This document shows positions 16,352-60,170 of a DNA stretch of 64,000 bases, piece by piece. The DNA comes from Chiloscyllium plagiosum. Taxonomy: Eukaryota. A program made the translations under genes and the position numbers. Where the stretch lies: contig NC_057718.1 of assembly GCF_004010195.1 (NCBI RefSeq), forward strand, positions 37,194,337 through 37,258,336, in the 5' to 3' direction. Below the pieces are notes generated by a model, which made no database searches, was not told the origin of the DNA, and saw only the letters and a list, made by a program, of their open reading frames with translations. Positions within the stretch are counted from its first letter, which is position 1, and each line of letters begins with the position of its first letter.

Positions 16352-16810
16352 GATTTGGAGATGCTGGTGTTGGACTGGGGTGTACAAAGTTAAAAATCAC
16401 CCAACACCACGTTATAGTCCAACAGGTTTAATTGGAAGCACTAGCTTTCAGAGCGCCACTCCTTCATTCAGCTTTGCAGAGGTATATTTTCTTGGTGTTG
16501 AGGAAATTGCTGCTTCAGTGTGGGTTGCAGCTAATTAAGTTGACAGGATGGGAATCCAATTCAGAATCTACTTGGCTCTGCGTAAACTGGATGAAGAAAA
16601 ATGACTTGAATGGACCCACAGCTGATGAAGGAGTGGCGCTCCAAAAGCTAGTGTTTCCAATTAAATCTGTTGGACTATATTTTGGATTAGTGGTGCTAGA
16701 AGAGCACAGCAGTTCAGGCAGCATCCGAGGAGCAGCAAAATCGGTTATAGTCCATCAGGAAGGGTTTTTACCTGTTGGACTATAACCTGGTGTTGTGTGA
16801 TTTTTTAGTT
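16352..16810. mobile_element. Composite Penelope-derived terminal element: inverted family-B arms enclosing captured local DNA, plus a family-A piece
   Basis: Arm 16413-16471 is the reverse complement of arm 16622-16679; insert 16472-16623 is an inverted copy of 15777-15929. Confidence 0.75.
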
Positions 16811-16849
16811 TTTTTCTCCCCTGTCAAGTCGCTTCCGATTTACATCTGC

Positions 16850-17915
16850 GATTCCTCGGATGCATTTCATCAGTTGCAGAACTTCCAGTTTGCAGGCTCA
16901 GTTGTCTCCTCTTTACCATAGACATGCAATCTCTTCACACTTCTATCCCACGTGGGGATGGTCATGGGGCTCTCTGTTTCTTCCTGCAAAAAAGGTCTGA
17001 ACCGTCCCCATCCACTGCCACCCTCCTCTGCCTGGCCGAGCTTGGCCTGACTCTGAACAGCTTCTCTTTTAACTCCTCTCACTTTCTTCAGGTTAGAGGG
17101 CTGGTCATGGGTACCTGCATGGGCCCCAGTTAAGCCCATCTCTTTGTGAGGTAGGTAGAACATACCTTATTCCAATCCTATTCCAGCCCCCACCAACAAC
17201 TCTTTCTCTGGTATATCAATGATATCACTGGTACTTCCTCTCTCGTCCATGATTGGAAAAGTTTATTAATTTCACTTCCTGTTTCCAACACACTCTCACC
17301 TTCATCTGGTCTATCTCTGACTCCTCCCTTCCTTTCCTCGACATCTCTGTTTCTATTTCTGGGGATAGGCTGGCCAACGATATCCACAACAAACCCACTG
17401 ACTCCCACAGTTACCTTCACTACACATCTTCACACCCTGCTTCCTGTATAGACTTCACTCCATTCACCCAGTTCCACTTTCTCCGTCACATCTGTTCTGA
17501 TGATGCCAGTTTCATCAAGGGAGCCTCCAAAATGTCCATCTTCTTCCTCAACCCAGGATTCCCACCACCATTGTTGACAGAGCCCTCAGCTGGGTCCAAC
17601 CCATCTCCCGCACTTCAGCCCTCACCCCTCTCTTCCCTCCCACAACAGCGAAAGGGTCCCCCAGAAGATCATTGGCCTCTATTAATGCCACCTCCAGCGA
17701 GATGCCATCATCAGACACATATTCCCCTCCCCCCCTTTGCCAGCCTTTCACTAGGACTGTTCATTCCAGGATACCCTGGTTCCCTTCTCCTTCACACCCA
17801 ACACCCCCCAGGGACCCATTACACCTTCCCCAGCAACCGCAAAAGACCCTGAGCATTGTTGCCTGCCATTTCAACACACTACCATGTTCCCTGGTCAATT
17901 TCTCTGTCTCAGGAT
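16850..17915 (+). mobile_element. Penelope-like element RT pseudo-ORF
   Basis: SLHTSIP, GLVMGTCMGPS, WYIND (YIDD-like), LPFLDISV, KPTDSHSYL and VACHFN are motifs of Penelope RT and the downstream GIY-YIG region; stops and frameshifts present. Confidence 0.8.
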
Positions 17916-18067
17916 CTTGGATTTCCCAGCCATCCGCATGTAGAATAGTGGATCTGATGAGCAGGAGGGCAGCAAGCTCTTGTCCCACTGTTTCCTTTTG
18001 GCATTGAAGGACCTGGCACATACTTAAGGGGCATTATTTGAACTGGCATTGCCTGCTCCAATATCCT

Positions 18068-18150
18068 AGTCTAGATTAGAGTGGTGCTGGAAAAGCACAG
18101 AGGTCAAGCAGCATCCGAGGAGCAGGAAAATTGACATTTCAGGCAAAAGC
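18068..18150 (-). mobile_element. Penelope-derived short terminal element (family A) with 16-bp TSD
   Basis: TSD cctgctcc(a/c)atatcct at 18052-18067 and 18151-18166; retains stem II and GAAA of a hammerhead motif. Confidence 0.7.
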
Positions 18151-20229
18151 CCTGCTCCCATATCCTGCCCAACTCAACAACTGTGGGTGTCGCAGGCAGA
18201 ACAGAAAGTGACCCCATCATTTAGCACCATTTTACGTACCATCGCTTGTATAAGTGCAGGGTTCACTTACCCCAGCTTCATGTATGCATGAGGAGATGGA
18301 TTTGAATAAATAGCAGAGATTGATCATTTCAGAACTTTATCATAGAATCGCTACAGTGGAAACAGGCCATTCAGTCCATCAAGTCAACCTCACCTCCATT
18401 TTCTCAATTGTTCCCTTGTTAAGAGTAATCTCCCATCTTGAGCTTCCCGCCTTTACACTGGGCCCCATTAAAGTAGTCAACCATATGCATGTTCTCCATC
18501 CTGAGTGCGCTCCCAGCAACGTCCACAGGCCAATATCAGGGCTTCCTGCTCTTCACATTAGAGACCTCCCCTATGAGGCCATCGCACGTTTGACCCTGGA
18601 ACGCCCATCTATTTTGCAACTTAAACAACAGCCACCCAGCCTCAATAGTAGCACAGACAACTGGTCCCCAAAGAAGACACAGCAATTTCTACCCACTCCA
18701 AAGCTTTCAAAGGTGACTAATTTATTTCCACTTGTCTCTGTTATGAACCTGAAATCATGTATTGTTTGCTTGTCAGGAACTTAACTTATGGGAGAGGGAT
18801 CTTATTTCTGTGAGCTAGCATTTTATTGAGCTCATGTGAGATGCAATTGCAAGCAAAGGACCTGTGAAGTTTGCTGTTAGGAAGCTGGACCCACCTTTAC
18901 ATTTCTGAGAATGCAATTGCAAAGAATTTATCTTATTGCCGGGATTCTGCATTTTGGCCACCTGAACAATTGGCTTTTCTCACTTCTCCAGGTGTACCCA
19001 GAAGAACCCACCCATTAAGAAAGTCCAAGGCAGAGAATGTATTCTGGCTGAGGGGTCCCAATGCCAATGACAAGAAGTGCTTTCGAGGTCTGATTCCCAA
19101 TGAGATTGGCTGAATTCCAAGATCAAGCTCAGAAACTGAGCCTGAGTCAGCGGTGATGGAACTAACTTGTGGAAGTAACTTACTTCATTTTGTCCTCACT
19201 AACTTGCTGCGTACAAATCTATGTGTCCATGAAGTCAGTAAAAAGAATGACTACTGCATGGCCCTTGTGAAGACAATGTCTACTTTTTGTGTTTTCCAAT
19301 GTGTGCTGTTACACTGTGGTAGGTGGACTGGAAAGAACATTAAACTAGCAAGTCAAAACTCGTCACCATGTGGTTTTGTATGCTGTCAGTATAATGTTAC
19401 ATCATAAACTCTCGCCTCCCAGTTTCTCTTACATTCTTCAATTCTCCATTATGACTAAGCTGGATGATGAGCCAATATTTATTACAAAGTGTTAGAAGCT
19501 TTTTGTTCTCTTTGGGGAGTATTCATTGATGCCGTACAATGATTGAGATAGGATGTCAGTAGTTTTGTTGTCAAAGGTCACAGAGAAAGACTGAGGGATG
19601 GAGGCAGAAGGAGAAAGGGTATATGGCAAGGGGGCCTGTCAAGGATAGAGAGGTCACCAGGGCAGGGTGGAGGGTTAATTATGAATGTGAGTATGCAGCT
19701 CAGGGTGGGAGGAATTTCACAGATTGAAATGATAATTGAGTTTTAGATATCAATCAAAAATTGAAGGGAGGAGGAAGCGCTATGAACATTCCTGTCCCCA
19801 GTTATAATGGAGCCTAGGGCATGAAAGCAAAGGATTGAATGATTACAAGTAGCTTCAGTTAAACGTGCAAAGTTAGCAATCCCACCCACCTTCATCTCGA
19901 GCTCCTTAGTTTATGACCAAACAGTGTGGATAACTTTATGTAATGTTAATAAATGGCTAAATGCAAAGACTTCTGGAACTGCAGGCATGTGCAAGAGAAT
20001 TAACTGCTCCCCTCACTAAGTTATTCCATAGCAGCTATCTCCTGGCATGCCAACAAGGTCTCACATGGCCTAACCATGCCCATTCTATTAAAAGATGGTA
20101 AAAGGTGAATCCCCTCACCCACTATGAGCAGCTTTGAGGGTCAACACTGGCCAGAGCTTAACTGGGCCAGTCACATTAACAACGTTCGTACAGGACAGGA
20201 CAGAGACTGGATACTGCATAATTGTTAGG

Positions 20230-20372
20230 CAAGAGTGAGGACTGCAGATGCTGGAGATTAGAGACAAGAGTCTGAGGAGCCCTGATGAAGGGCTTTTGCC
20301 CAAAACATTGACTCTCCTGCTCTTCAGATGCTGCCTGACCTGCTGTGCGTTTCCAGCACCACACTCTCGACT
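20230..20372. mobile_element. Penelope-derived family-A element, partial inverted arrangement, decayed hammerhead core on + strand
   Basis: gtgaggactgcagatgctggaga.. then cctgatgaagggcttttgcccaaaacattg.. from 20281. Confidence 0.7.
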
Positions 20373-20885
20373 GTGTAATAGTTAGCTCACTTTCTTGCTC
20401 CTCAAAACTTCTCCACCATCTGCAAGGTTCAAGTAAGTCCATGATAGAAAGCTCAGCACTCACCTGGATAGATACAACTGCAGCAACAGTCAAAAAGCTC
20501 AACTCATTTCAGGATAAAGCAGTCTGCTTGATCTGTGCCCTTACCACTAGACTGGAGCTGGCCATCCCCCTTTCCACTGTGGCTAAATATGGAAACTCTG
20601 CCATAGCTCACTAATCAGGGTTTACACCTCCCAACTCCACAGTAGCTGGCAAAAAAAATTGGCTGAGAACAGCAATTATGTGAACCTCTGCTTATTCCAT
20701 CCTGGATTTATCATGTCGCACTATCTTTCATCACTGAGTCAATATCATGAAAATCCTTAATCCCAATTAATTCCTTTCAAGTTCTCCAGTAGCAGAAGAA
20801 CTACAATAGCTCTAATCAGAAGGCCCACTATCACTTTCTCAGGCAATTAGGGATGGGCATAACTTTAAAGAATGCCACACATGAG

Positions 20886-21000
20886 GACTTTGTGGTGTTG
20901 TGGCAATGTGCCTGTTTCAGAGACAGGAGGCCTAAGTTCACGTCCGACCTGTTTCTTAAGTGCAATAACATCTCTGAACAGGTTGATTTGAAAATATTTC
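20886..21000 (+). mobile_element. Short tRNA-like SINE, second family
   Basis: Degenerate A-box tggtgttgtggc and B-box agttcacgtcc, then ataacatctctgaacaggttgatt. Confidence 0.45.
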
Positions 21001-22852
21001 CAAAACGTCACAGGTGTCCTAAGAGCCCAATTAAAGAACCCTCGTGATGACTCATTCTAAACTTTATGGAACAAGAGGACAGTGTCTTTTGCGTTTTAAC
21101 TGTTGATTCTGGGTAATTATTTTCATTTGTGCCACTGAATTTGCTATTAGCCTTTCTGAAGTTGCTTACCAAGAATACTGAGAATTATATGGCCAGCATA
21201 GAGCATAAACTAATAATTCAGGCACATTGCTCAATTTCTTTCCTTTCTCCAGATACATCTCTTATACTTACTGAATTCCCCATGAAGATTTCTTCGAGAA
21301 AATTTGAAGGATGCTCACTCAGTAATATTTTGCTACAATCCTTAAAAATTGTTAGCACCCTGAAATGCTATGGTAATGTTGAACAGTGTTAATATCCTGC
21401 AGTGGTACCAATTCAAACTTTCCCATATGTCACAGTATCATCAATGTGCATTAAAGGCATGGGGCAGGTTATCAGAAAGCCTTACTTACCCACGAATACT
21501 GCAATTTAGGGGAGCGTTTTCAACAGCAAATGGTTCAAGTCGAAACATAAGCATGTACAGGGCCACTATTTCAGTCTCTAACCTGAGACATGGGCATTTA
21601 AAACCTGCTTGAAAATCTTGGGGTTTCATGAAGAAATGGAGTTTTAGTGCTGGTCAGTTAAGTACACCTGCACCAGATGTTTGAGAGATAATAGTCAGTA
21701 GTATTTGTCATTTTGCTGCTGCAGAAGTTCCTTGAAAATCTGAAATAACATCAGAAAATTACCAATGAACACATCTGTCACATGATATGACATTGAGGGC
21801 ACCGATGTTCAATTGAAGGTTTATGCTGAATTAATTGATTTCATATAGGTTTTATATTGAGCTTCATGACTAACATCTGCTCCTGATCACTATCCAGTGA
21901 ACCCTAATCCAAGGGCTTGTGGGTGGCCATTGGATAATGGAGAATCATGATCGCTTGTGATATCCTACAAATGCTGTCAAGTGTTTTCTGTTTCAAGTGC
22001 CCACATGAAGTGTGGCCATACTGTAGTCTCTTAGAAGGCTCTGGAGAGAAGAAATCTCAGAAGAACAAACCAAGCACACCTTTTTAATCTTTAACTAATT
22101 GTTCTTGAATTTGGTGTTTGCTTGGATCGACAGCTTTTCAATCATATGTGAGACTCCAGAATCCTCTGGAGGATTAAGCAAGAAAATGACAGTCGATGCC
22201 TACATTTCCAATCAGCTGGTAGGCTGAGGGGGGTCTCCACTGTGCAATTTCCTGGACTTCACAACAAAAGAAAAGGTTCTTAGAGTTTGGTGCTAGACCA
22301 ACATTAGCACTTTGTGCAAGTGACTAACAGAGAGATATGTATGCAATTTGTTGTGGAAACATCAACTTTTCTGTAACTGCTAAGCCTGCATTTAGGGAAT
22401 ATAAACTGAAGTCTATATTAAATATTGCCAACAAATTACATAATGAAACCATTAGCTTTCTTTAGTGATGGGCATCTATCCAGCTTGGCTGAAAGTTTGA
22501 GAACATTAAGCTCCTGGATACCTACAACAAATAATTCAAGCTGACATTTTCCTATATTCAGCACTCTCATTATCATCAAGTATTTCATTTCTTAAATCCC
22601 TGCCATAACAAAGCTTGATTTTTATTTTTATGACTAATTGATCTATTAATAAAAGTCTTCTTAAAAGATGATAGGACTGCTGGTTTTAATCCTGTGTCAG
22701 TACTGAGTTTCTGATATCAGGTCAGTAGACTGAACACAACAATCAGCTTCACAGCTCTTGGTTAAAGAGTGAAAGTGGTTCAGGATTTCTACCATTGATT
22801 GGTACCCAATGACTTTTGCTGGAAAATGTATGGATATTGGAATCCAGATTTT

Positions 22853-25670
22853 TCACAATTTTTTTTTCCATTCGTGTAAGCTGTGTTGGCAAGGCCAGTG
22901 TTTATTGTCTATCAATAATTGCCTTTGAAGTGTAGCTTTGGGGGTCGGGAGGTGAGTTTCTTGCCACAAAGTTCCCAGCCACTGCGCTTTTCTAGGATAG
23001 CCACAGTATGTATATGCCTGAACCCTTAAGTTTCTAAGCAACTTTGCAGTCCCAGAATGTTGATCTTGCAGGATACAACAATGGTAATGCTTGTTGAAGA
23101 CAGTCATTGCCTGGCACTTGTATGATGTGAATGTCACTTGTCACCAATGACCAAAGGCTGAAGGACATCTGAGTCTTGCTTCATGCAGTACCTAAACAAT
23201 CATGAACGGTTCTGAACACTGTAAATATCTGTAAACATCCCCACTGTGACCTTATGATGGAGGATGGTATTGATGATGTAGCCAAAAGTTCCTTGGGCAC
23301 TATCCAAGGAACTACTGCAGCAATCTGCTGGGGCTGAGATGATTGGCTTCCAACAATTGTAACCATATTCCATTGTGCAAGGTATGACACCAATACACTC
23401 TGTCAAAAGCTGCTTATGCCAAGGACGGTTACTGTCACACCAATGCTGGAATTCAGCTCTTTAGTCCATGCTGGACCAAGGTTGTAATGAGGTATGGGGT
23501 GAAATGCCCTTTGAAGAAGCTAACTGGCGGGTTGCTGCAGAGCAACTGCATTTGATACCACTGTCAATGGCATGTTCCATCATTTTTCTGATCACGGAGA
23601 GAAAACTGAGTGGTATCGGTTGATTGGATTTGTCCTACTTTTTGTGGACCGGATATACCTGGGAAATTTTCCCCATTTTGAGGTCATTACCAATGCTGTT
23701 GCTGTACTGGAATGGCTTGGCTAGGAGCACAGTATAAGTACAGCAATCCAGCTGAGATGTGGTCAAAGCCTTTGTTGTATCCAGTGCCTTCAGCTGTTTC
23801 TTCATACCATACTGAATGAATCAAATTGGTTGAAGACTGGAAACTACATTGGTAGGAACCTCAGGAAGAGGCCAATGTGAATCACCCACATTACACTTAT
23901 ATCTGAGAAAGGTTACACATCTTTAGCTTTGTCTTTTGTGTTGAAATACTGGGTCACACTATCATTAAGACTGGAAATGCCTATGCTGTTTTTGTTAATG
24001 GCCAAAAGCATTGATGACTGAATGTTGATAGGACCTCTGAGGTTTGATCTGCTCTGATCTGATGGTTGTGCTTAGCTCTATCTATCACATGTTTCCTCTA
24101 TGGATTCCTGTGTCGAAGCTTAATCAGATCAACATCTCATCTTTAGGTGTGCTGATATTGCTCCTGGAATGGTCTACATTCGTCATCGAATCAGGGTTGG
24201 CTATCCAACTTGATAGAAATGGTCCTGTGATGGTTATGCCAGTCTATGAGGTTATACATTGTGAATAAAGTTCTGTCACTGCTGATGACCAACAGCATCT
24301 AATAGGTGCTAGTTTTAATCAATCTGAATCAATCCCAACACATGGATAGTGTCACACAGCAGAATGGAGTCTACAGAACATGGAACATTACATTACAGGC
24401 CCTTCGGCCCTCGATGTTGCGCTGACCTGTGAAACCAATCTGAAGCCCATCTAACCTACTCTATTCCATTCGGTGGCTCAGTGGTTAGCACTGCTGCCTC
24501 ACAGTATAAGGGTCCCAGGTTCGATTCCAGCCTCGGGCGACAAGCTGTGTGGAGTTTGCACATCCTCACCATTTCTGCGTGTGTTTCCTCTGGGTGCTCT
24601 GGTTTCCTCCCACAGTCCAAAGATGTGCAGTTCAGGTGTATCGGCCATACTAAATTGCCCATAGTGTTAGGTTCATTAGTCAGAGGGAAATGGGTCTGGG
24701 TGGGTTACTCTTCGGAGGGTCGGTGCGGACTTGTTGGGCCGAAGGAACTGTTTCTACACTGTAGGAATCTAATCTAATATGCCTATTCAATGACCATTTA
24801 AATACCCTTAAAGTTGGCGACACTGTTGCAGGCAGTGCATTCCATACCCCTACTACTCTCTGAGTAAAGTAGCGAGAATGTATCTTCAGTGTGAAGGTGG
24901 AACACCATCAAAGACTGCAGTGATCATTCCTTTCAAAACTGTCATAAACAAATGCACCTAATAAAAAGTGAAGTCGTTTTTTTAAAAAGCTCTTGTTAGT
25001 TCTTTCAGCATGAGCCGCAGGCATATTTTGGCAAGAATGTTCTTCAGGACTTAGCCAGCAATGGTCCTCTTGATAATGGACATTCAGGTTCTTCACCCAG
25101 TGCCACTGGTGTCTACAGTGCACCTTCCAAATTCAACAGAGTGGAACACTGTTTCATCAGCTGTAAGATTTAGTAGCTGGAAACCAGGAGATTACCCATG
25201 TTTGATAATATGCCATGGAACTTCCTAGAGCCCAGAGTCAATGTTGAGGAGTCCCAGGACCACTTGCTCCATAATAGTGTACCATTGTTCTGCCACTTTT
25301 GGTGGGTCTGCACTGATGATGAAACAATGCATGTTGATGGATGATGGTAGAGGCATTCACTGTAAAGTATAGTGCAGAGATTTGACTAGTTTTTGAGACA
25401 GTTCTCAGAATGTTAGCATTATTTGGTGAGGATGACATTATAAGGTCAACAGAGCAACATGTGTCTTTGTAGCTTTGATGCCAGGTGGTCCATCTGTTGT
25501 TATTTGTATTGAACTTTTCTGTAACAGTTTCATGTCAGTGGCTTCCCAGGCCATTTCAGAGGGTCATTAAGGATCGACTACATTGGTGTGGTCTCATGTC
25601 CCGTATAGACAGACAACAGGTTTCCCCCTGAAGGGAAATTGTGAAACTGAAAGGCTTTCATGACAATCTA
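22853..25670 (-). mobile_element. Old, highly decayed LINE with nested CR1 tail (24375-24870) and SINE
   Basis: Residual RT-like text (TFTSYKCQAMT, VPWIVP..); homologous to 9821-10463. Confidence 0.55.
24471..24777 (+). mobile_element. HE1-like SINE
   Basis: tggctcagtggttagc A-box, ggttcgattcc B-box, (aatct)n tail. Confidence 0.9.
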
Positions 25671-25675
25671 AGATG

Positions 25676-27150: not shown

Positions 27151-28569
27151 TTTATCGCTGGGTCTGGGAGAAAGTTACCCACAATATGAAGGGATCTGTT
27201 TTCTAATTAATCTCATTGTGATCCAGAGGGTGGGTGAATAAAGATGAGGAGCCCGTGCATCCCTCCTCTCCCAGGAGATGAACAAGTTGGAGTCTCCGTC
27301 TAGAACCATAACAAATTGGGGAATCTTACTTGGGAAGGACTGGTCATAACAACCTCTAACCTTAATCCTGCAAGTATTCCTCCATTGATTTCACCCCTAA
27401 AACATTAATTTGCATGTGATTGCTCAGTTCATGTTCCTCACAACAGTCAATAAAGTTATTATGCAAACACCTGGTTTTGATGGCATCTCAGCCAGAAGTC
27501 ATTCTCACATTTTGTAATATTTTTATAACAAAAGATGATCTTATAACAGCTGAGGCATAAAAGGTGACAGACAGCAAAACATTAAATCATTGCCTGCTCA
27601 TCCCAACAGAAAAGAAGCAGTGGAGTACCTGGGAGAGTTGTTATAAGAGGAGCACTGTATGGAGGGATAGTAAGAGATAGGCCAGCCACATACTTGTCAT
27701 TATACTCTGCTTCTATTCTTTCTCATCTTATTGCATCAGACTTTAAGTAGTGCCACAAAACCTCAAATTACTCATCTTCCAGAAAGTGAAATGTGAAGTC
27801 TGTCCCTTGTCATTTTAACCTCTTTCCTTCGCCTAGATCTGTTTGAAGAAATGGAAGTAAGGGTTTCAGTCCCCTTTACAGCTGGCTGTGCCAGCACTTC
27901 AGTATATGTGCCTTCACTCAATCACTGCCTTTCAATTACCAGTGCTGAGGCATCTGAGGAAGAACAGAATGTGTCATAGAAGACTGTATTGAGCTAAACA
28001 ACAGCACATGAATGAGCAGGAATAGTTGGCACTGCAAGTTAGAGAGTGATGTGTTGCTGACTGGAAATATTCTCCACCGCATCCTTCCACCCCTACAACC
28101 CGCCTCCCCAGGTGAAGAACCCAGAGGTCCAATAGTCAGAGATGAGCTTTCAGAAGGCGAATGCTTGCACAGTATCAAATTTACATCTAAGTACTAAGGA
28201 ACACACAAGAAAGCTGACTAAGCAGAGGCATCCATTACCGGAATGAATGCTAATGCAAAGGATGGCTTTTGGAGTGTGGGGAACCTTCAGCTAGATCTTC
28301 ATTAAAAAGGACTATATGGGTCATTGGTATTTTCTCAGTGGATTTTCAGACTGTTGCCTCAGAGGCTGCAGCATCAGAACTGGGAGACTCGTCTGGCTCC
28401 AGAATGACAGTTGAAGATCTGATTTTACTGATCTCATGAATACTGCGCAATCTTTTCCTCCAGGGATAAATGGCTATGAGAAGTACAGCAGTCCAACAGA
28501 AATTAATAAGGATGATGCTTTCCCTCTTATATAATAAACGAAAACATGTGAAAGCCACAGATCTGATAC

Positions 28570-28735
28570 AAAAGTAGAAATTGTTGGAGAAACTCAGCAG
28601 CTCTGGCAGCATCTGTGCAGACAAAGCAGAGTTAACATTTTGGATCCAGTGACCCTTCTTCAAAACCTTAAATGTTAACTCTGCTTTGTCTCCACAGATG
28701 CTGCCAGAGCTGCTGAGTTTTCCTAGCAGCTTTTC
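28570..28735. mobile_element. Penelope-derived fold-back element (family C) with 51-bp inverted arms
   Basis: 28590-28640 vs 28670-28720 show one mismatch; the loop reads (minus) tgaagaagggtcactggatccaaaatgtta, a decayed hammerhead core. Confidence 0.75.
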
Positions 28736-28830
28736 TTGATTGCAGCAAAACTAGCCTTGAACACCATCTCCATGACCTAAATATTGTTAAAATATTTGGG
28801 TTGGGCAGGTTTACACAAGGTGTAAATTAC

Positions 28831-28960
28831 TCATTCCTGGTGAAGGGTCTTTGCCCAAAACGTCAATTTTCCTGCTCCTCGGATGCTGCCTGACCTGCTG
28901 TGCTTTTCCAGCATCACACTCTTGGTTCTCATCTCCTGCATCTGCAGTACTCACTTTCAC
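28831..28960 (+). mobile_element. Penelope-derived family-A element with 15-bp TSD
   Basis: TSD caaggtgtaaa(t/c)tac at 28816-28830 and 28961-28975; cctggtgaagggtctttgcccaaaacgtc core. Confidence 0.78.
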
Positions 28961-29200
28961 CAAGGTGTAAACTACATCAATTCACACTGCATCAGATGAA
29001 GGCCATCTCAGTTCAAACAGACCCATGAAGGATCGTAATAGAGAGCCATTTCCAAGATTGTTGATATGTTTGCAGTACTTAGGGGAAGACAAGATTAAAT
29101 TAAAGAGTTCACACCTATGCCAAGGTGAAGCAAAGTGATAACAGCTTGGCTTTTGATTAAAACTACTGTTGTTGACAAGATTTAAAAGCTTTTTTTGTAT

Positions 29201-29490
29201 GATTAGATTACTTACAGTGTGGAAACAGGCCCTTCAGCCCAACAAGTCCACACCAACCCTCCAAAGAGCAACCCACCCAGACCCATTTCCCACTTCACCT
29301 AACCATGGTCAATTCACCTGACCTGCACATTTTTGGACTGTGGGAGGAAACTGGAGCACCCGGAGGAAACCCAGGCAGACACGGGAAGAATGCGCAAACT
29401 CTACACAGACAGTTGTCTAAGGCAGGAATTGAACCCAGATCGCTGGCAATGTGAGGCAGCAGTGCTAACCACTGTGCCACCATGCCACCC
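29201..29490 (-). mobile_element. HE1-like SINE, full length
   Basis: Reverse complement of the same SINE with A/B boxes and aatct tail. Confidence 0.9.
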
Positions 29491-32780: not shown

Positions 32781-32908
32781 AGGGGAAGATGAAGACTGCA
32801 GATGCTGGAGATCAGAGACAAAAAGTGTGGCGCTGGAAAAGCACAACCGGTCAGGCAGCATCTTAGGAGCAGGAGAGTCAACGTTTTGAGTATAAGCTCT
32901 TCATCAGG
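32781..32908 (-). mobile_element. Penelope-derived family-A element
   Basis: rc cctgatgaagagcttatactcaaaacgttgactctcctgctcc..catctgcagtc. Confidence 0.75.
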
Positions 32909-41035: not shown

Positions 41036-41215
41036 GGAGTCAAAGAGTGTGGTGCTGAAAAAACACTGCAGGTCAGGCAGCATCTGAGGAGCAGGAACGT
41101 TGATGTTTCAGGCATAAGCCCTTCATCAGGAATGGATGCTGCAGAAATTCTCCTGCTCCTCAGATGCTGCCTGACCAGCTGTGCTTTTCCAGCACCATAC
41201 TCTCGACTCTGATCT
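41036..41215. mobile_element. Penelope-derived family-A fold-back pair with hammerhead core on the minus strand (41102-41129)
   Basis: About 60-bp inverted arms; minus strand ctgatgaagggcttatgcctgaaacatc. Confidence 0.78.
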
Positions 41216-42377
41216 CGGCACACTCTTAAGCAAAGCATTGCTGACCTGGCCACATGCAATTTAAATGGATTAACTAATAGATTTATAACCTTGGGGACTG
41301 TGGCTGTCACATTCAGTATTGACAAATGGATGCTTTGTACAGTCAATTCAATGCCATTAAATGGGACTCAAAATACTAAAAGGTGAGCTTTTAAAGTCGG
41401 ACTAAAGAAATGAGTAAGTAGTTAACTATGGGCCTGGAACTTCATAAGGATGGATTTCCTCTGTAAAAAAAAGCTTATAGCTACAACATCCTTGGTAAAT
41501 ATACCACCAAGGAGGTTCTTGTGAAGGTTTAGTTCCTGGCAAAACTACTGTGTGACAACAATGTAATATGATATAAAGATCAGGTTTAACATATCTTTTG
41601 CTTGGCTATGTGGTTTCTATATTTACTTCCCAATTTGCCACACTCGCCAAAGGCAGTGAATCTTGCTGCTACATATAGCTTGCTTGGCACTCCAGTATTT
41701 TGCCCACATACAAATTGGAATGTTGTGTATGAGCAGACTATACGACCTCATACATTCACACCCAATATCCACACATATGTAATTGCTGGACAGTGACTAG
41801 AACGGCAAACCTTAGTTGATTTTAGTCTCTCCTAACAGAAGAGTATAACTGTAACAGCTCTAACATCACCTAGGCTGCAACCAACAGACTAAGTGTTAGA
41901 TCTTGGGCCTTCTATAGTTGTGCTGATAAATATCATTAAATGACAAACCTATGTAGTAAGCCACTGTCAAAGCACATCAAGTATTTATTTATATATATAT
42001 GCACCATTGTATCGTTAATACACAAACATGGTTATCTGTTTACAAGATACATGATAACATGACAACACATCCTCTTAAATTGTTGTTTAATGGTGCTAAG
42101 AAAAAAATCTCAAATTCTCAAACATGTTCACTTCACTCAGCTTTCAAAAGTCAGTTGGTCTTCATTCTGTGCATCTTAGTTACAGACAGCATAGTGCCAC
42201 CGTAGTTTAAAGGCAAAACATAGCATGAACATATGTTCAGACACAACAGTCTTTCTGGTAGTGAGTTCATATTTGGCCCATTTCAAAAGAGAACGGATCA
42301 GCGAGAAGGTAGACACTGAGAGGGATGGAAAGCAATTCCCGAAACACTAACTTGCACTTGGTCACCTTTGTATTAAA

Positions 42378-42463
42378 GCTGAAAAATGTGCTGCCGGAAA
42401 AGCGCAGCAGGTCAGGCGGCATCCAAGGAGCAGGAGAATTGACGTTTCGGGCATAAGCCCTTC
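42378..42463 (-). mobile_element. Young family-A element with perfect 10-bp TSD
   Basis: TSD ttgtattaaa at 42368-42377 and 42464-42473; CpGs retained; rc gaagggcttatgcccgaaacgtc. Confidence 0.8.
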
Positions 42464-44240
42464 TTGTATTAAACACAAGACCTGGATATCTGTCTGCCAT
42501 CTCAGCCATACAGGAACATGTCACTGACTGTATTGCCAGCATAGCAAACAACACTTTCATACGTACAATTAAAAACTTCCGAAATAAAAATAGGAAATGT
42601 TGGAAATACACTAAAACCAAAGAGTCAATCTGCTTTTTCTTTTTCTGGTGCTAACTGACCTGTTCTGCACTTTCTGTATTTTGTACATTTATTTCTTCAA
42701 ACTTCCATTAGCTCTACATTGAACAATACTTCACTAAATTAAGCAGCAGACTGAAAGCAAAATTCTCAAGAGCACCTAATTGTGTTTTTTTTAATAAAGG
42801 AACAATATGATACATTTAACGCACTCCAGCAGTCAAGTGTTTAAATGTCTAATCATCGACTTTTTAATTATTCACAAGCATATAGGAAATAGGTGTTTGT
42901 GAGCCCTTCAACCACCTAAAATAAAATGTAAAAAAATGGCACTGACCGTAACTTCAAAAGTTCCTTTGTGATTCACTGCACAAAGCTCTATCTATTAAAT
43001 CTACAGAAAGCTGACATACGTCTGAAAAAGATGTTGCAGATAAATTTGGTTCAGCAAATTCAATATCCATTACCCTGTGAAGTGCATGTCTCAATCTATT
43101 TAGTTCTCACAGAAAGAATGCAGCTTTTAATAAGTAGCATCCATTCAACTAAACTATTTCTTCATCAAATCCCAAACACTGAGTTTGATTGTTGCTGTTA
43201 GTGCTGAACTGGCGTCTTCAGCCCCTCCCCCCCCCAAATCAGAAACACAAAACTATTTTGCTTTTCTTCTCTCTGAACATGAATGGTGCAGAGGCTTTTA
43301 ATTAACAAAACGTTTCTTGCTCTGTTTGACAAAAAAGGTTTCTTGATGGGATTCTAAGAAAGGATTACATGAAGCATGTCGGTTTGATTCTTGCCCAGTT
43401 CTTCTGGCCTGCCCTGTACTGCACCCTTGGCTGCCATTCAGTCTAGTTTTCCTTCATGAACTCCCTCTTTTCTGTGTGGTTCAAGGAGAAAAGATACGTG
43501 TCCTGTCTCTCAACTCCCCAGCTGCCTCAGAACTTTAAAGGTAAGCCATGCAGCAGCAAATTAAAATAATCACTAATGAAATTTTTTTTTTGATTTGCAG
43601 CTGTTTGTAGACTCCACCGTTTAACCTTACTCTGTTGTTTGAAGTTTTTGCTGAACTACACTCTCAGCATCACATATCCCTGTAATGACACATTCATATT
43701 ATTGAGTAACTTCCACTTGAATTTATTTCTGTGGCAACTTTAGCTGCTACTGTATAATGTAGCCTACGTCATAACCCATTAAATAACAGCAAACAACAAT
43801 CACAACTACAATACCTTGTCATAAGTATTTCCCCAGTGGCTGTGGAAGATCCATACCAGCCAGTGAATATAAAATTCATGTGCTGCTGGCCAGAGAGTTA
43901 ACTAAGCAATCAAAAAGCCTGTGGATAGTTCAGGCAAAAGAAAATAGCAACTTGCTCCCAAAATATCCACAAAAACAATATATATTTGTGCATCGCCTTG
44001 AACACTACAAAACCTCTTAAGATACTTCACAGCAGTGTCATACATTAAAATATGATAAGGGACTAATGATGTTGTTTAACTACCACTGTTGCTCTAAGCA
44101 TGTCCACAGGAGCCAGGTTTAGGAAGCTAAAAATTGGTCTTTTCCCTTCGCAAGTCTCCTTCAGGGAAGGTACGGACCTGCTGGGAATATGATTTAGCAG
44201 GTACTTCCATTACCTTATCCAAGTTACCATCATTCACCTA

Positions 44241-44355
44241 CAGGGAAGACCGCATTATCTGGATCCCAAACTTCCAGAATTGACATGCAACTGGCATCCA
44301 AGATTCGAAAAAATAATTCCAGAAGCTTCAAAGCCGGATATCAGGCACTTTACTG
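44241..44355. mobile_element. Possible short degenerate Tigger-like MITE
   Basis: TA|cagggaagaccgcattatctgg ... ccggatatcaggcactttactg|TA. Confidence 0.4.
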
Positions 44356-45133: not shown

Positions 45134-45318
45134 AATGCAAGGAAACACTGCTAAAAAGAAATTCCTTTCATCTGCCTAAAAATATTGGATCAAACTTAAG
45201 ATGTAGACATTCAAATTTAATCCAATACAGTCTGGATGGGTTACTCTTCGGAGGGTTGGTGTGGACTTGTTGGGCCGAAGGGCCTGTTTCCACACTGTAG
45301 TCATTCTAATTCTAATTC
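45134..45318 (+). repeat. Copy 1 of an inverted duplication: about 95 bp non-SINE sequence plus SINE 3' end
   Basis: Reverse complement of 61623-61806 with about 7 differences. Confidence 0.9.
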
Positions 45319-52948: not shown

Positions 52949-53432
52949 ATAGAGTTAAAAAGATGTACAGCATGGAAACAGAGCCTTCGTCCAACCCATC
53001 CATGCCGACCAGATATCCCAAACCAATCAAGTCCCACCTGCCAGTACCTGGCCCATATCCCTCCATATTCATATACCCATCCAAATGCCTCTTAAATGTT
53101 GCAATTGTACCAGCCTCCATCACTTCCTCTGGCGGCTCATTCCATACCCGTACCACCCTCTGTGTGAAAAAGTTGCCCCTTAGGTCTCTTCTATATCTTT
53201 CCCCTCTCACCATAAACCTATGCCCTCTAGTTCTGGACTCCCTGACCCCAGGGAAAAGACTTTGCCTATTTACCCTATCCACGCCACTCATAATTTTGTA
53301 AACCTCAATAAGGTCACCCCTCAGCCTCCGACGCTCCAGGGAAAACAGCCCCAGCCTGTTCAGCCTCTTCCAATAGCTCAAATCCTCCAACCCTGGCAAC
53401 ATCCTTGTAAATCTCTTCTGAACTCTTTCAAG
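52949..53432 (-). mobile_element. Young HER1/CR1 LINE 3' fragment, reading frame largely open
   Basis: ORF 52848-53402 (MLPGLEDLSYWKRLNRLGLFSLERRRLRGDLIEVYKIM...). Confidence 0.9.
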
Positions 53433-54171
53433 CTAAAGAAGGAAAGCTCAAAGGACATCGCTGCCTCTTCTATGCTGCACTAAATGTCATTTTATTAATG
53501 TGATGTTGCAAAGTATTCAAAAAATATAAGTTCAAATCACAACATTCCTCTTATCTGCTCTCTGTGGCAAGTGTAGTCAGTTTTCAGCTTGACTGTCTGA
53601 ATGGTAATCTAGTGGATGCATCTCTCAACCATTACAAAATTAATCAGTTCTACTGGAATTAGAAAAAGGTGGATTCTATAATGGATGAGGGATTTAATCT
53701 GTCAGATTACTGCCCAGGCAATGAAGATACAAATCTACTCTTCTATTTACCTTCTCATCACAAAGCAACAAGATGGATGTTATGCCAAGTTTAATAATTT
53801 CTCGTCATACGACTGACATATTTCACCTAGGAAAGCACACATTGTACAATCGAGTGCCCAAAATAGGCGACACACACCGCGAACAATTTCCAATTAGCAA
53901 CTATTGTAATCCAGAAAGTCGGCTGAGGGAAGTTAGGAATGAATCCAATATTTCCATATTTTTTATAAACTTGCATCTCTTAAACTTGCCGCCATAGTTT
54001 CAATTTGCTCCCAATTATTGGGTAAAAGTGATTCCCCAGTTAAACTCAACCAACTCCATTAAATTAAAATGTAATTCATAGACAATACATCTCATGCCAA
54101 GTTACTGAAAGCATACAGTTTATACATATTCATTTCTAAGCAATGAGATATGCCTACACAAACACACTGTA

Positions 54172-54275
54172 TTAGATAGGAATATAGGCCATTCAGCCCC
54201 TCGAGCCTGTTCCACATTTCAATGTGATCATGGCTGATCTGTAGTTTAAATCCACATACCTGCCTTTGGCCCATA
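54172..54275 (-). mobile_element. CR1 3' tail
   Basis: ataggccattcagcccctcgagcctgttcc..gatcatggctgatct. Confidence 0.65.
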
Positions 54276-54730
54276 AGCAGTTCCCCCATATTATTGCAGC
54301 CCTGTGTTACTCTATCATCTTTAAATGCACTCTTCCCATCGATTTATTTGAAATAAAATTTCTTGTATTTTTAATTTTTGTAATTCACATGTTAAATTTA
54401 TACATCTATTTTTGTGACTTCTACTCTTTCACACCTGGTAGTTCCTTATTTAGAGGAGGGAGAAACACAACAGTCTAGTTACACCAACAGAAATATAGTG
54501 GGATCAACTCGATATTGTTTTGTGGGAACATACTACAGTTGTGCTAGCAATTGAGGTTTCTCCTGGGGTAGAGGGAGGAATAGAAAATCTTTAGCTGCAT
54601 TAGAACTATGAAGGGTGTTATTCTTTCAATTGATGGAAGAATATAGTTACAGAACACAGTAATGCACTTGTTACTTTGAATCTAGTCTTAATTTGGCTCC
54701 TGGTGGGAGTTGGGCTGAGGTGAACAGGAA

Positions 54731-54782
54731 ATTGACAGGCCTTGGCAATGTGAGATTGACAGGCCTTGGCAATGTGAGATTG
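54731..54782. repeat. Perfect 24-bp tandem duplication
   Basis: attgacaggccttggcaatgtgag x2 plus attg. Confidence 0.9.
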
Positions 54783-56049
54783 TGATTATTCAGGTCTCAT
54801 GGGTGTTCTCAACAAAACTCAACAAAAAGTGCCAGCTGACTGATGTGGTTTCTAGGGTCAAACTCCTCTGTCAGTATGATATGTTCCGACTGCTATCCTA
54901 TACACTAGCTTACACAACCTATACTACAAAGACAGAGTTCTTGTTGAGATGGATGTCTCAGAGTTTATTAACAGTTCTAGCCATTTAAACTGTTATAATA
55001 TCTCAGATTTATAGGGTAGTCTGAGTTTAATACTTATTGATATTATGGTTACATTACACGACATATAGCCGACTGCGAGATTGTTGGCTGCACTGTCTCC
55101 ACTACAGAGACACAGAGAGAGTGCTGCAGGTGAGACAAAGATGTCATCTGTCTTAAAGGCACACTGCATTTCTGAAACTTAAGCAATAATACAATATTGA
55201 CGAGCGGGTGAGGGGCTGCAATCAAGTGTCCATAGATATATGTCCCATTGGTCAGTTACATATCTAGGAATGGAGTCCCAAGGGTCTCTTGGCCAGGGTA
55301 GTGAACAATGGCAGAGGGAGGGCCTAAGCTAATCTTTTCAACCTGGGGTAGAACGCTTGCACACTGGACAACTTACAGTTTAGAAATAGTCATATTATCC
55401 TGGTACCCAGGATAATATTTCAGAAAAAAATTGAGCAGCTTGTGGGACTGACAGAGTAAAAAGATGGGCAGGATGAACTGAGCAAAAGCTAGACAAAAAT
55501 ATAAATAGAAAAGACATGGAGGAGACAGAAAGGGAATAAATCTGATTGAGAGCAAAATAATAAAACCTGCAGACGGCAGATTAGAAAGAAAGAATTAAGG
55601 GGCTGGATTTTTCACCGCTCTCTGAGAGTTGGGAATGGTTGTCCATGTGATTGTAAAATCACCTTCTACACGTTTTTAAATCCCAACATGTACAGATGCA
55701 TTCCAATTTACAAAGAGAGGGCAGGAAGGGGTGGTAACAGGGGAACCATTCACCTCCAATTCATGTTCTATAATTTCAGGAGCTTCTTAACAAGTCAGCA
55801 TTTTCAATTGGTAAATCAGCGAACCTGAACAGTTTAGTGTCTATTAGTGAACAACTGTCAGACTCAATGTGGGGAGAACTGAAAAGTTTTTCTATGTCGT
55901 AGAGAATGTTGGAACCTGGGAGAATTTTCTACTGAATTGTGGTATTACCTTTCATTTGGTCTTAGGTCATTTTCCTGCATGATTAGTGTGGCATTTTTGC
56001 CTCGGAAATATGGACAGACTAATCTAAGCAGAAGTTTCATTTGCAACGT

Positions 56050-57150
56050 ACCTCTTAGAGTCTGAAATGGGTGAATTCATCATGGAGATCAAGGAAATGG
56101 CACAGCCATTAAACAACTACTTTAGTTCTGTCATAGAGGCATAGAGTCATACAGCATGGAAACAGACCCTTCGGTCCAAACCGGTCCATGTTGAACCTAA
56201 TCCCAAACTAAACTAGTCCCACCCACCTGCTCCTGGCCCATATCCCTCCAAACCTTTCCTATTCATACATCTATCCAACTTCCCAGAAATTGTAGGGAAG
56301 CAAGGGTCTTCGGGAAGGAAGGTTTGCAGGAAATCAGTATTAGTAAAGATAGCGATGGATAAAGCAATAGTACTAGAATGCAGGTAAATAAGGACCAGAT
56401 AGTCTACATCCAAGGGTATGAAAGGAGCTGGTCATAGGAATCGTGAATGTGTTAGATCTGTACATTTTGCAACAGTCCAGCAGATTGAAAGATGGCAAAT
56501 GTAGCCCCAATACTTAAAGAAAGAAGGAAAAATGAGAAAAGGGAATGACAGACTGGTTAGTTAGCAGTAGGTGAAATCCAGGAGTGCTTGCCCAAGCAGA
56601 AATATATTTGCCATTGATATGGTTCAGCAAGTTTTCACTGGGTTGATTCTTGGGATAGCATGTTGGTCATGACAGTAGAGATTGGGTCAACTTGGCTGTG
56701 TTCACTAGAGTTCTGAAGGTGATCTGATTGAAATGTATAAATTTCTGACAGAGGTGGACAGGTTTTGTGCAGGGGTGATGTTCCCCCGATCTGGGGTGTC
56801 CACAAGAGATCGCAGTCTCAAGAAATGGAGTGGACCATTTAGGATATACAGACTGAATTTAAAACTTAGAAAATGAGACATTTCTTCACACACAGGATGG
56901 TGACCCTCTGGAATTTTCTAACTCAACAGTTGCTGGAGGTCAAATCACTAAATTATGTTTAAGAATGAAGTAGATGGATTTTTAGACACCAAAAACATCA
57001 AGGGTCTAAGAAGAGGCTGGAAGTACGCAGTTGAGGTAAAAGATCAGTCATGACCATATTGAATGATGGAGAACTCGTAATGATCTGAATTCTCTCCTCT
57101 TTCTCCTACTTTCCATGTTTCTCCTTTTGCTCCCATTTTCCATGTTTCTC
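56050..57150 (+). mobile_element. Decayed CR1 LINE with a nested minus-strand HER1 tail (56131-56281)
   Basis: gaaatggcacagccattaaacaactacttt, gattgaaagatggcaaatgtagcccc, ggtgatctgattgaaatgtataaa; duplicated tail at about 57090-57150. Confidence 0.65.
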
Positions 57151-57693
57151 TGCTTCAATTTCAGTTCAAAAACATAGCAGCTTCACTCTAAATTCTGTGT
57201 CTCCCTGTAGCCACAACCAGTCTTTACTAACAGCACAGATATCAGAGAAGAATCAACAGACATACATAATCAAAAACATAATCATTCACCAGTCCACTTA
57301 GGCTGCTGGCCCTCCGAGGGGCTGTCTGCACCATTCTGCAATGGCAGCTTATGCCACGCTTTGGCTGCCATTGTCCCTCATACTCTGAAGCAGCAACAGC
57401 TCCCTACTCCTGGTAATGCACATCTCTTCTTTGATAGTGAGATGGCCTCCAGCCCCAACAGAGCATTCACATGGTCAACCAGCATTGCACTAAATTTAGA
57501 CTTCATACCGTAAATGGTCTACCCTATTTCATGCAATGCTTTGACCCAGATGTTATCCAGGCTTCAACTATCCAAAGCAATTTGAAAAGCAAGTACAAGG
57601 TGTGAGAAAGGCAGAGAGAGAAGTAGGACAGGAGGGAGAAACAATATGACAGGCAGAATGGGAAAGGAAAACAGGAGTGTAAGAATGTGATAC

Positions 57694-59087
57694 CATAAGA
57701 CCATAAGACAAAGGAGTGGAAGTCAGGCCATTCGGTCCATTGAGTCCACTCTACCATTCAATCATGGCTGATGGGCATTTCAACTCCACTTACCCGCATT
57801 CTCCCCATAGCCCTTAATTCCTTGCGACATCAAGAATTTAGCAATCTCTGCCTTGAAGACATTTAGCGTCCCGGCCTCCACTGCACTCTGCGGCAAAGAA
57901 TTCCACAGGCCCACCACTCTCTGGCTGAAGAAATGTCTGTTCTGAATTTACCCCCTCTAATTCTAAGGCTGTGTCCACGGGTCCGAGTCTCCTCACCTAA
58001 CGGAAACAATTTCCTAGCGTCCACCCTTTCCNNNNNNNNNNNNNNNNNNNNNNNNNNNNNNNNNNNNNNNNNNNNNNNNNNNNNNNNNNNNNNNNNNNNN
58101 NNNNNNNNNNNNNNNNNNNNNNNNNNNNNNNNNNNNNNNNNNNNNNNNNNNNNNNNNNNNNNNNNNNNNNNNNNNNNNNNNNNNNNNNNNNNNNNNNNNN
58201 NNNNNNNNNNNNNNNNNNNNNNNNNNNNNNNNNNNNNNNNNNNNNNNNNNNNNNNNNNNNNNNNNNNNNNNNNNNNNNNNNNNNNNNNNNNNNNNNNNNN
58301 NNNNNNNNNNNNNNNNNNNNNNNNNNNCCAAACTGTCTAGCTCCTTCTGCAGCCTCCCCACTTCCTCAGTACTACCTGCCTGTTCACCTAACTTTGTATC
58401 ATCGGCAAACTTCGCTAGAATGCCCCCAGTCCTTTCATCCAGATCATCAATATATAACGTGAACAGCTGCGGCCCCAACACTGAACCCTGCGGGACACCG
58501 CTTGTCACCGGCTGCCATTCCGAAAAAGAACCTTTTATCCCAACTCTCTGCCTTCTGTCAGACAGCCCATCCTCAATCCATACCAGTAGCTCACCTCGAA
58601 CACCATGGGCCCTCACCTTGCTCAGCAGCCTCCCGTGTGGCACCTTATCAAAGGCCTTTTGGAAGTCTCGACATCCACTGGGTTTCCCTGGTCTAACCTA
58701 CTTGTCACCTCTTCAAAGAATTCCAACAGGTTTGTCAGGCACCACCCCCCCTTACTAAATCCATGTTGACTTGTTCTAATCCGACCCTGCTCTTCCAAGA
58801 ATTTAGAATCCTCATCCTTAATGATGGATTCTAGAATTTTACCAACAACCGAGGTTAGGTTAATTGGCCTATAATTTTCCATCTTTTGTCTTGATCCTTT
58901 CTTGAACAAGGGGGTTACAACAGCGGTCTTCCAATCATCCGGGACTTTCCCTGACTCCAGTGACTTTTGAAAGATCTCGACCAACGCCTCCGCTATTTCC
59001 TCAGCCACCTCCCTCAGAACTCTAGAATGTAGCCCATCCGGGCCAAGAGATTTATCAATTTTAAGACCTTTTAGCTTTTCTAGCACT
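57694..59087 (-). mobile_element. Young 5'-truncated CR1 LINE spanning an assembly gap; 8-bp TSD
   Basis: ORFs with GPDGLHSRVL, NYRPINLTSVVGKILE, GVPQGSVLGP, FADDTKL; tail rc cataagaccataagac; TSD tgtgatac at 57686-57693 and 59121-59128. Confidence 0.9.
58032..58327. other. Assembly gap (296 N) inside the LINE
   Basis: Run of N flanked by collinear LINE sequence. Confidence 0.99.
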
Positions 59088-60072
59088 GAACCCTGCGGGA
59101 CACCTCTTTCATTCTCTTGCTGTGATACTGGCAGCAAGAGGATGAAAGGAGAGGGCAATTAATATAAATTGAGAGGGAGACAGGGAGGGAAAGTGCGAAA
59201 GTGATGAACAAATAGAAAGAGAGGGAGAAAGTGAGAAAATTGAACAAGCCTGAACAATGACAGAGAAAAACTGAGGACAGCTTTCCTGTTATTCCTGCAC
59301 TCATTTTCTTGATGTAATGAATCTCTCATCATTTTTTAAAAAATCAAATCAGTGCACAGCAGGTCATCCACAGCACCTCAACGAAGGGTTCCAATTTAGC
59401 TCTTAAATTGAGATCAGCTACCACCCGAGAAACCACAGCCTTCCTCGCACTTCCTCGACAAAGGAAATGTTTGTTGTATTTATTATGGTGATGTGAATAA
59501 ATTTAATGTGATGACAGGCCTCAGTCAGCAGAAAGCATAACAGATCCCAAAGAATTAGCAAATCTTCGGAACACCTGTGCAGCTTCTTATGCTAATTATG
59601 AAGCAAGGTAACTACAGACAATCTGGGTTTATTTCAGTTCTGTTTGACAATGAATGGCTTTTCTGTCCTTTCTATTCCCAGCTCTGAACTCCACAATCAA
59701 TCATCACTCGCCTCCCTTTGCTATACAGCTGCAGTGAAGCGGTAAGCGACAGACGCCCATTTCAAATCAAACAACCCACAGCCAGCCAGAAAGGCTGGAC
59801 AACCCGACTTCAGTCAGCCTAGAGTCTGCCCACAACCCCAACCTGTTCAGAATTCATCTTTACAATACCCAAATGTTTTTATTTTGTCTCATTATTCAGG
59901 TCCTGAGCGATGGAATGTGACAGATTTGAACATTACAACATTAAACAAAGAATGCAATGACTCTGAGACACACAGGAAATGCAATGTGAACTTTTGTTGT
60001 GCTTGGTTTTTTATTAAATGCATGCTGTACATGGGAGAGTTAACAGGAACAAGTGAAAGATAAAAGGCTGGT

Positions 60073-60170
60073 TTCTAATGAAGGGACCTTCCTAAACGTT
60101 TAAGCTGTCTTTTATCCTTTTGGTGCTGACAGACCAGCTATGAATTTCCAGTATTTCTCTGTTTTATTTC
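60073..60170 (+). mobile_element. Old Penelope-derived terminal element with eroded hammerhead core
   Basis: tctaatgaagggaccttcctaaacgttt..ggtgctgacagaccagctatgaatttccagtatttc. Confidence 0.5.

Follow-up and report, generated by a model that had tools for sequence, protein, structure and literature searches.

The 64,000-nucleotide stretch of the Chiloscyllium plagiosum genome considered here (contig NC_057718.1, forward-strand positions 37,194,337 to 37,258,336; hereafter the window, numbered from its first base) carries many short hammerhead-ribozyme-like units related to Penelope-like elements, which raises the question of whether these units multiply on their own or are by-products of longer parents. 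A preliminary description had listed ten motifs belonging to three families, A, B and C, with distinct stem II sequences and an ACGU or AGCU palindrome, and all ten are found at the coordinates and on the strands given, with the same division into families. The units are the pseudo-long-terminal-repeat (pseudo-LTR) ends of parents encoding a reverse transcriptase (RT) and a GIY-YIG endonuclease, and possess a sharp 5' boundary, two discrete 3' ends, target duplications and a pairing of long-tailed with short-tailed arms. Most of them are probably dead-end run-off complementary DNAs (cDNAs) of the parental enzyme, each begun at one of two sites within the RNA and continued up to its cap.

Parentage and ribozyme of the short units

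The genome (3.56 Gb in 101,977 contigs) was sampled blind at round coordinates of large contigs, in 160 stretches of 10 kb amounting to 1,548,783 non-N bases, and an arm was defined as a match of score at least 40 to profiles built from the window families. The sample contains 505 arms (287 of family A, 83 of B and 135 of C), or 326 per Mb, which, with the long arms counted in, occupy as much as about 4% of the sampled sequence and correspond to a whole-genome total of about 1.16 million arms if the rest of the genome is alike. As the profile searches find this many arms elsewhere in the genome, the ribozyme-like repeats are not chance matches. A bare motif scan of the window returned ten matches, three of which are family members and seven are not, while Rfam gave no hammerhead match either in the window, with E values allowed to reach 5, or at the gathering score in 150 kb from elsewhere in the genome; minimal motifs escape the Rfam hammerhead models. 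The window holds 17 arms from about 11 insertion events, i.e. about 266 arms per Mb, and is thus ordinary rather than unusually dense as previously proposed.

The suggested Penelope origin is borne out for all three families. At loci around long frames, RT is followed by GIY-YIG and then by a family A unit, all in the same sense, and Pfam identifies RVT_1 in three and GIY-YIG in two of the eight family A proteins scanned. One such locus (L023) is a near-full family A element consisting of pseudo-LTR, open reading frame (ORF) and pseudo-LTR in a partial tandem, where the first repeat continues into the ORF and the second ends at the short end; together with the 3' end classes and pairs described below, it displays the partial tandem pseudo-LTRs, the inverted 5' copy and the one-sided tail of 30–40 bp. 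Upstream of family B, RT-thumb and GIY-YIG motifs were recognised by eye in L127, L133 and L125 among 25 long copies, while a Pfam search of family B gave no GIY-YIG match. The family C unit lies about 1 kb downstream of RT matches in the same sense, the endonuclease region being degraded. The RT-like frame of the window at 17253 has 40,601 first-look candidates genome-wide. A linker of the form C-x4-C-x2-C occurs in family A (L023) and family B (L127) and is not clean in the one family C copy inspected; in the accessible portion of Craig et al. (2021, PMC8557442), a CX2-5CxxC linker between RT and endonuclease is assigned to Neptune and Nematis. By this linker the parents of A and B would be of the Neptune or Nematis type.

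The five subfamily consensuses and the per-column counts fit a minimal type I hammerhead with a palindromic stem III, as had been described. The consensuses retain the CUGANGA and GAAA boxes, the extra base after A9, the G10.1-C11.1 pair, the palindromic 15.2-16.2 pair and the NUH triplet. A search for a stem I partner and for covariation in stems I and II, suggested earlier as a check, revealed a stem I of 3–4 bp with compensatory changes between families, a covariation that rests on only five or six independent lineages. Pair 2.1-1.1 is C-G in A and B and U-A in C1 and C2; pair 2.2-1.2 is U-A in A and C1, A-U in B and C-G in C2; and pair 2.3-1.3 is U.U in most A copies, U-A in 13 A1 copies, C-G in B and G-C in C, while stem II varies in sequence by family with its pairing kept. 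In five of six C2 arms, core positions 3 and 8 are U and A, a swap reported for Schistosoma (PMC4209133, accessible portion). In energy-based folding, neither the A nor the B consensus settled into a clean hammerhead, whether as monomer or as dimer, and the gain of -1.8 to -7.8 kcal/mol on folding as a dimer, obtained without a control, is not used as evidence.

Strict intactness is passed by 87 of the 272 sampled arms that span the motif. The constant core claimed for the window holds for the family consensuses and not for the window copies, none of which (0/10) is intact. Five of these (16622, 20282, 28662, 28837 and 32907) carry G12>A, two (18150 and 42463) start within the core and lack CUG, and copy 16467 starts at A6; in copy 41129 the two boxes persist, whereas stem III and the first pair of stem I are gone, and copy 60074 is eroded. 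The losses are mostly attributable to CpG decay or to 5' truncation into the core.

Ends, pairing and local arrangement of the copies

End statistics are based on 472 arms, 33 arms near an edge or N having been excluded, and positions are given relative to the predicted cleavage bond, where +1 is the first base past NUH. The 5' starts fall at -39 to -24 in 211 arms, beyond -45 in 83, inside the ribozyme in 87 and downstream of it in 86. Per base at risk, the stop rate between -39 and -24 is 0.073 (A), 0.066 (B) and 0.062 (C), as compared with 0.0035, 0.0031 and 0.0077 further upstream, a jump of 8- to 21-fold within 16 nucleotides (nt) in all three families; the copies are thus not random-length truncations, in agreement with the preliminary description. 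The boundary lies 3–8 nt upstream of the ribozyme core. The modal start is the A of TCATTC in A1 (12/96, tied with -30) and A2 (17/161) and the A of TCAGTT in C1 (7/102, tied with -31), and family B peaks at the A of TCCACA at -36 (9/80); the corresponding A is at -31 in family A and at -33 in C1.

These bases are initiator-like, and in B, C1 and C2 a TATA-like box matching the TATA consensus at 7–8 of 8 positions is located at -31/-32 from the initiator-like A. Only 77 of the 472 arms reach the TATA position, the short copies being without this upstream box. At 17 of 37 ends the initiator A is preceded by an extra G, as compared with 38 of 189 controls (p = 0.001, Fisher test; p = 0.017, binomial test against 0.284); a G at that position is what copying of the cap would leave. 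The RNA data, a poly(A) single-cell run and contigs, contain copies on both strands. On the family A pseudo-LTR, 152 loose read ends coincide with the same A versus 40 one base inward, and the contig loose ends peaking there number 55 in X1 and 34/24/17 in X5. Most such ends derive from genomic stubs that are transcribed; they corroborate the boundary but do not locate the start site. In several contigs, each seen singly, 5' ORF sequence or the long tail is connected to the beginning of the leader (2672-2683), an arrangement that template jumps following run-off would be expected to produce.

The 3' ends fall into two classes about 35 nt apart, at about +60 and +98 in A, +55 and +92 in B, and +67 and +99 in C. 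Of the 505 arms, 202 form 101 head-to-head pairs, and no tail-to-tail pair occurs in the sample. Among the 88 pairs with classifiable tails, 82 combine a long with a short tail, five are short with short and one is long with long (p = 2e-18). The flanks share at least 8 exact bases in 53 of 88 pairs and in 31 of 191 solo short copies, against 1–2% in shuffled pairings. Distinct inverted junctions account for 95 of the 101, and a single shared flank was seen among 104 solo copies. Paired arms do not resemble one another more than they resemble other copies (3/76), which gives no sign of conversion or fold-back copying. No head-to-tail array exists among the 505 arms, rare arrays beyond the 1.55 Mb sampled being possible; abutting neighbours of the same family and strand are limited to two of the 505 arms, both partial, and 16 such neighbours lie within 300 bp.

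In four pairs (L164, L215, L220 and L085), both arms begin at the initiator A and share or flank AT, forming near-perfect palindromes, and L085 has an extra G on each arm. The C1 and C2 tails contain, between +5 and +24, a pyrimidine run, CAG and then ATG, resembling a splice acceptor ahead of a start codon, and the long end of family A finishes in a branch-point-like and pyrimidine stretch.

The copies in the window are as follows.

6095..6126, minus strand: family A tail piece, +66 to +97, absent from the earlier list
16352..16806, no single strand: composite head-to-head family B insertion, one event, with a 12-bp target duplication (16340-16351 and 16807-16818)
16352..16467, minus strand: family B long-tail arm, -25 to +90, starting inside the first core box
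16462..16623, minus strand: captured inverted copy of host DNA, 163 bp, 93.9% identity, source at 15777-15938 (about 500 bp away)
16619..16679, plus strand: family B piece, -31 to +29, hammerhead with G12>A
16690..16743, minus strand: family A piece within the composite, from the cleavage bond (0/+1) to +53
16770..16806, plus strand: family B short-tail end, +15 to about +56
16826..17911, plus strand: decayed Penelope-like fragment from RT to endonuclease, 74–79% identity to family C elements, without a pseudo-LTR of its own
18068..18153, minus strand: family A solo arm, -20 to about +64, without the first core box
20234..20375, both strands: family A head-to-head pair, minus arm 20234-20271 (+55 to +92) and plus arm 20281-20375 (-28 to +67)
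28565..28728, both strands: family C head-to-head pair, minus arm 28565-28666 (-32 to +69) and plus arm 28670-28728 (-6 to +52)
28830..28960, plus strand: family A solo long-tail arm, -34 to +97, with an 11-bp target duplication (28816-28826 and 28961-28971)
32790..32908, minus strand: family A solo long-tail arm, -28 to +90
41037..41216, both strands: family A head-to-head pair, minus arm with a hammerhead (41129-41102) and plus arm from +2
42377..42465, minus strand: family A solo short-tail arm, -24 to +63, with a 10-bp target duplication
60070..60165, plus strand: eroded family C arm
63374..63434, plus strand: family A tail piece, +19 to +79, without a hammerhead, absent from the earlier list

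The preliminary description had overlooked the head-to-head halves at 20234-20375, 28565-28728, 41037-41216 and 16352-16806. Its proposal that several units have their own target duplications is borne out at 3 of the 11 window boundaries tested (28830-28960, 42377-42465 and 16352-16806). The inverted host DNA and the family A sequence that opens at the cleavage bond, both within the composite at 16352-16806, imply template switches onto local DNA and onto the RNA of another family. The end of the composite's piece at 16619..16679 coincides with the polyadenylation position of family B RNA considered below. An open frame end at 28346-28450 on the minus strand resembles a host exon, so that the copies may be intronic. 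The other repeats of the window are mostly what we take to be short interspersed nuclear elements (SINEs) of transfer RNA (tRNA)-like type and pieces of CR1/L2-type long interspersed nuclear elements (LINEs).

Cleavage and polyadenylation signals

Starts at +1 to +3 were found in 14 of the 472 arms, and in family A 12 ends occupy this interval, which was picked after seeing the data, versus 1.8 expected from flanking rates. Copies of U6 small nuclear RNA give a second indication: among the 20 of 48 U6 matches that were read, two are fused to the family A tail at exactly +1, and none (0/20) is fused at the -31 boundary, though that boundary is far commoner among the stubs. In the accessible portion of Moldovan et al. 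(2019, PMC6789731), U6/LINE-1 chimeras are formed through RtcB ligation, for which the partner needs a 5'-OH. The shark fusions likewise join the U6 3' end to a retroelement RNA that is then retrotransposed, but they are joined at the ribozyme bond, where cleavage would provide the 5'-OH. Judged from these small numbers of 5' ends and U6 fusions, the family A ribozyme would cut a minority of the RNAs, probably as a dimer.

Ten of the 20 U6 copies (L230, L231, L233, L237 and L240-L245) run directly into the 5' end of a tRNA-like SINE common in the window, and tRNA-like sequence directly follows U6 in L227. U6-SINE chimeras seem to be the commonest type of U6 pseudogene here.

For the family B repeat, 151 and 215 reads of one run (X19, of which about 2% was read) diverge at +27 and +28, respectively, into an A-run, mostly on one strand. 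A hexamer lies 13–15 nt before this site (of 75 B arms, 33 have AATAAA and 29 ATTAAA), followed behind the site by a GU-rich stretch, and a genomic A-run at the position was seen in none of 83 B arms. The read depth reaches about 200 nt upstream and spans the uncut ribozyme. The reads may stem from a single host transcript, or from a few, whose 3' end lies in a B copy; if they represent the element's own RNA, the start and the poly(A) site bound a 64-nt repeat that holds the ribozyme, with both RT start sites beyond it. The A and C consensuses have no hexamer at the equivalent position, and one family A variant has a hexamer near +48.

Origin of the short units and comparison with known systems

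The following course of events is proposed for the run-off cDNAs. Transcription would start at the initiator-like A behind the TATA-like box, which places the ribozyme first in the RNA. The RT-endonuclease would cut the two target strands 10–16 bp apart and, by analogy with an anole element in vitro, could prime at the long site on one strand and at the short site on the other. Each cDNA would run off the cap after 90–130 nt, and two run-off cDNAs would then be joined head to head, or one to the target. About one fifth of the arms extend upstream, which might occur through read-through RNA or a strand jump, and the stubs, being without the upstream promoter, would not be transcribed alone.

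Several observations weigh against this proposal. The initiator A doubles as the outermost stem I base in families A and C, so that its position alone does not distinguish a start site from a structural stop; the family A TATA match is weak (5–6 of 8) in AT-rich sequence, the 5' ends of B are spread (12 at -31 versus 9 at -36), and the extra G is seen in B (6/8) and A (9/21) but not in C (2/8). The RNA reads have no pile-up of molecule starts or ends on the A or B repeat, so the start site was not seen directly, and the B start at -36 is not among the listed loose ends of reads. The excess at +1 to +3 is absent in B and C (2 ends over 523 base-positions at risk), and two more U6-element fusions join internal positions rather than the cleavage bond. 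Comparing the arms does not tell whether the second one arose by twin priming or by fold-back synthesis. On the family A tree (78 columns, 25 of 171 rows dropped as sister arms), short copies are interspersed with long ones but cluster somewhat, with 32 label changes versus 37.3 ± 2.2 (p = 0.016; p = 0.006 with CpG masked), which may reflect differences in jump rate between sources, missing upstream references or some short masters.

The same ends could be explained, though this is unlikely, by RT or RNA processing halting at the edge of stem I, owing to the ribozyme structure or a bound protein and with no link to transcription. The modal 5' base is indeed position 2.4 of stem I in A, C1 and C2, the second B peak is at the outer stem I edge (-31), and 13 ends at -7 (G12, the foot of stem II) in A and C indicate that structure can stop RT. 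However, RT enters the helix from its 3' side, so that a stall would be expected near +4, the B peak at -36 lies 5 nt outside stem I with an extra G in six of eight, and the TATA-like boxes hold their -31/-32 spacing in three unrelated upstream sequences. Ordinary 5' truncation, of which the short class is merely the commonest length, is hardly credible; while 83 of the 472 arms are longer with scattered ends and 86 end downstream of the cleavage bond, the step in stop rate is seen in every family and recurs in read depth and loose ends.

The preliminary description suggested that the units may behave as a non-autonomous, retrozyme-like layer. A layer of this or of a SINE-like kind would consist of short units that are transcribed, cleave themselves as dimers and are recopied by Penelope proteins; it now appears improbable, more so than the structural stop. 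Such a layer would fit the defined ends, the units' own target duplications, their very high copy number, the proportion of intact arms (87 of 272 evaluable), their presence in RNA reads of both strands and the mild clustering on the tree, which leaves room for some mostly-short sources; in addition, animal retrozymes are derived from pseudo-LTRs, and some are reported from one chondrichthyan in the accessible portion of Li et al. (2026). Against it stand the lack of head-to-tail arrays in the sample and the head-to-head ribozymes, which lie on opposite strands so that one transcript cannot carry both in sense. Also contrary to a layer are the distinctness of the junctions and near absence of shared flanks noted above, the presence in all six A tail classes of long copies continuing into the 3' region of the element, and the failure of any diagnostic site to survive 312 tests per subfamily. 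Moreover, a circle or monomer made by cleavage would begin at +1, whereas the main 5' end is 31–36 nt upstream of the bond.

The run-off reading, which remains the preferred one, may be extended tentatively, though this is less likely than not, to a pseudo-LTR that is a true U3-R-U5. The RNA would then reach from the ribozyme start to a poly(A) site after the downstream ribozyme, such as that seen for family B, target-primed RT starting from U5 would yield strong-stop DNA and jump via R to the 3' end and so regenerate the pseudo-LTR, the stubs would be failed jumps, and the cleavage-bond ends and U6 fusions would record real germ-line cleavage. A hammerhead at both RNA ends would supply the dimer partner. 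Subfamily switches between the upstream region and the tail gave no evidence of strand transfer, as 3 of 52 were discordant, all with near-tied tail scores. In the accessible portions of earlier papers, no obvious mechanism of pseudo-LTR regeneration is recognised (Schostak et al. 2008, PMC2377424), the ribozyme function is called unclear (Craig et al. 2021, PMC8557442) and the ribozyme is dispensable in vitro (Frangieh et al. 2024, PMC11167929). Searches found no publication joining Penelope-like elements with strong-stop and hammerhead, none on Penelope with U6 small nuclear RNA, hammerhead and RtcB, and no relevant one on Penelope pseudo-LTR polyadenylation and strand transfer, subscription literature, Repbase and Dfam being mostly outside the search; the supplements of Li et al. 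(2026) may list shark families A–C.

The origin of the units and their ribozyme are of a known kind, and the value of the copies is in their regular ends. About a million dated insertion scars yield exact predictions of the start site, the RT start sites, the cut stagger, the poly(A) site and the cleavage bond. In addition, the stubs give rise to numerous hairpins within introns, and host transcripts could be terminated by the working poly(A) signal that family B carries.

The pseudo-LTR hammerheads of Cervera and de la Peña (2014, PMC4209133), compared like the other systems here through the accessible portion of the text, have the same type I topology, the extra base between A9 and stem II, the G10.1-C11.1 and palindromic 15.2-16.2 pairs, a short stem I, many families and the U3-A8 core variant, and their copies are likewise mostly solo with some close opposite-strand pairs. 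About 4,000 motifs are given there for the coelacanth and 9,000 for Xenopus, as compared with 87 intact motifs in 1.55 Mb here, or roughly 200,000 by extrapolation, and copy ends, which are not mapped in that text, are mapped here; sharks do not figure in the portion consulted. Insertions of endonuclease-bearing (EN+) Penelope-like elements (Arkhipova et al. 2013, PMC3846280; PMC8557442) share the partial tandems, the head-to-head inverted copy, the 30–40 bp tail at one end, target duplications of about 8–16 bp, a TATA box and initiator in the pseudo-LTR, and host DNA capture; they are variably 5'-truncated, whereas here a fixed 5' end dominates and both arms are often minimal.

In vitro, the anole Poseidon element (Frangieh et al. 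2024, PMC11167929) similarly has two internal RT start sites that bound the tail, extension of both target strands and a weak, protein-assisted ribozyme near the ORF start. It differs in having no strand bias in the start site, versus 82 of 88 long-and-short pairs here, and no RNA reads ending at the cleavage site, where family A copies and U6 fusions begin. Non-LTR retrozymes (Cervera and de la Peña 2020, PMC7229834; Li et al. 2026, 10.64898/2026.07.22.740005) possess the same type I hammerhead and are non-coding, pseudo-LTR-related and flanked by larger target duplications, but constitute 150–450 bp head-to-tail arrays with mostly canonical ribozymes and circular RNAs. The shark units, in contrast, occur singly or head to head and are minimal, with ends that fall at the proposed start site and the RT start sites. 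Retroviral minus-strand strong-stop DNA is likewise begun close to the 5' end of the RNA and completed by run-off at the cap, and the start and poly(A) site bound the terminal repeat. A retroviral-like poly(A) bound is seen for family B only. In contrast to the retroviral U3-R-U5, priming here would take place on cut target DNA rather than on tRNA, so that the stop product integrates.

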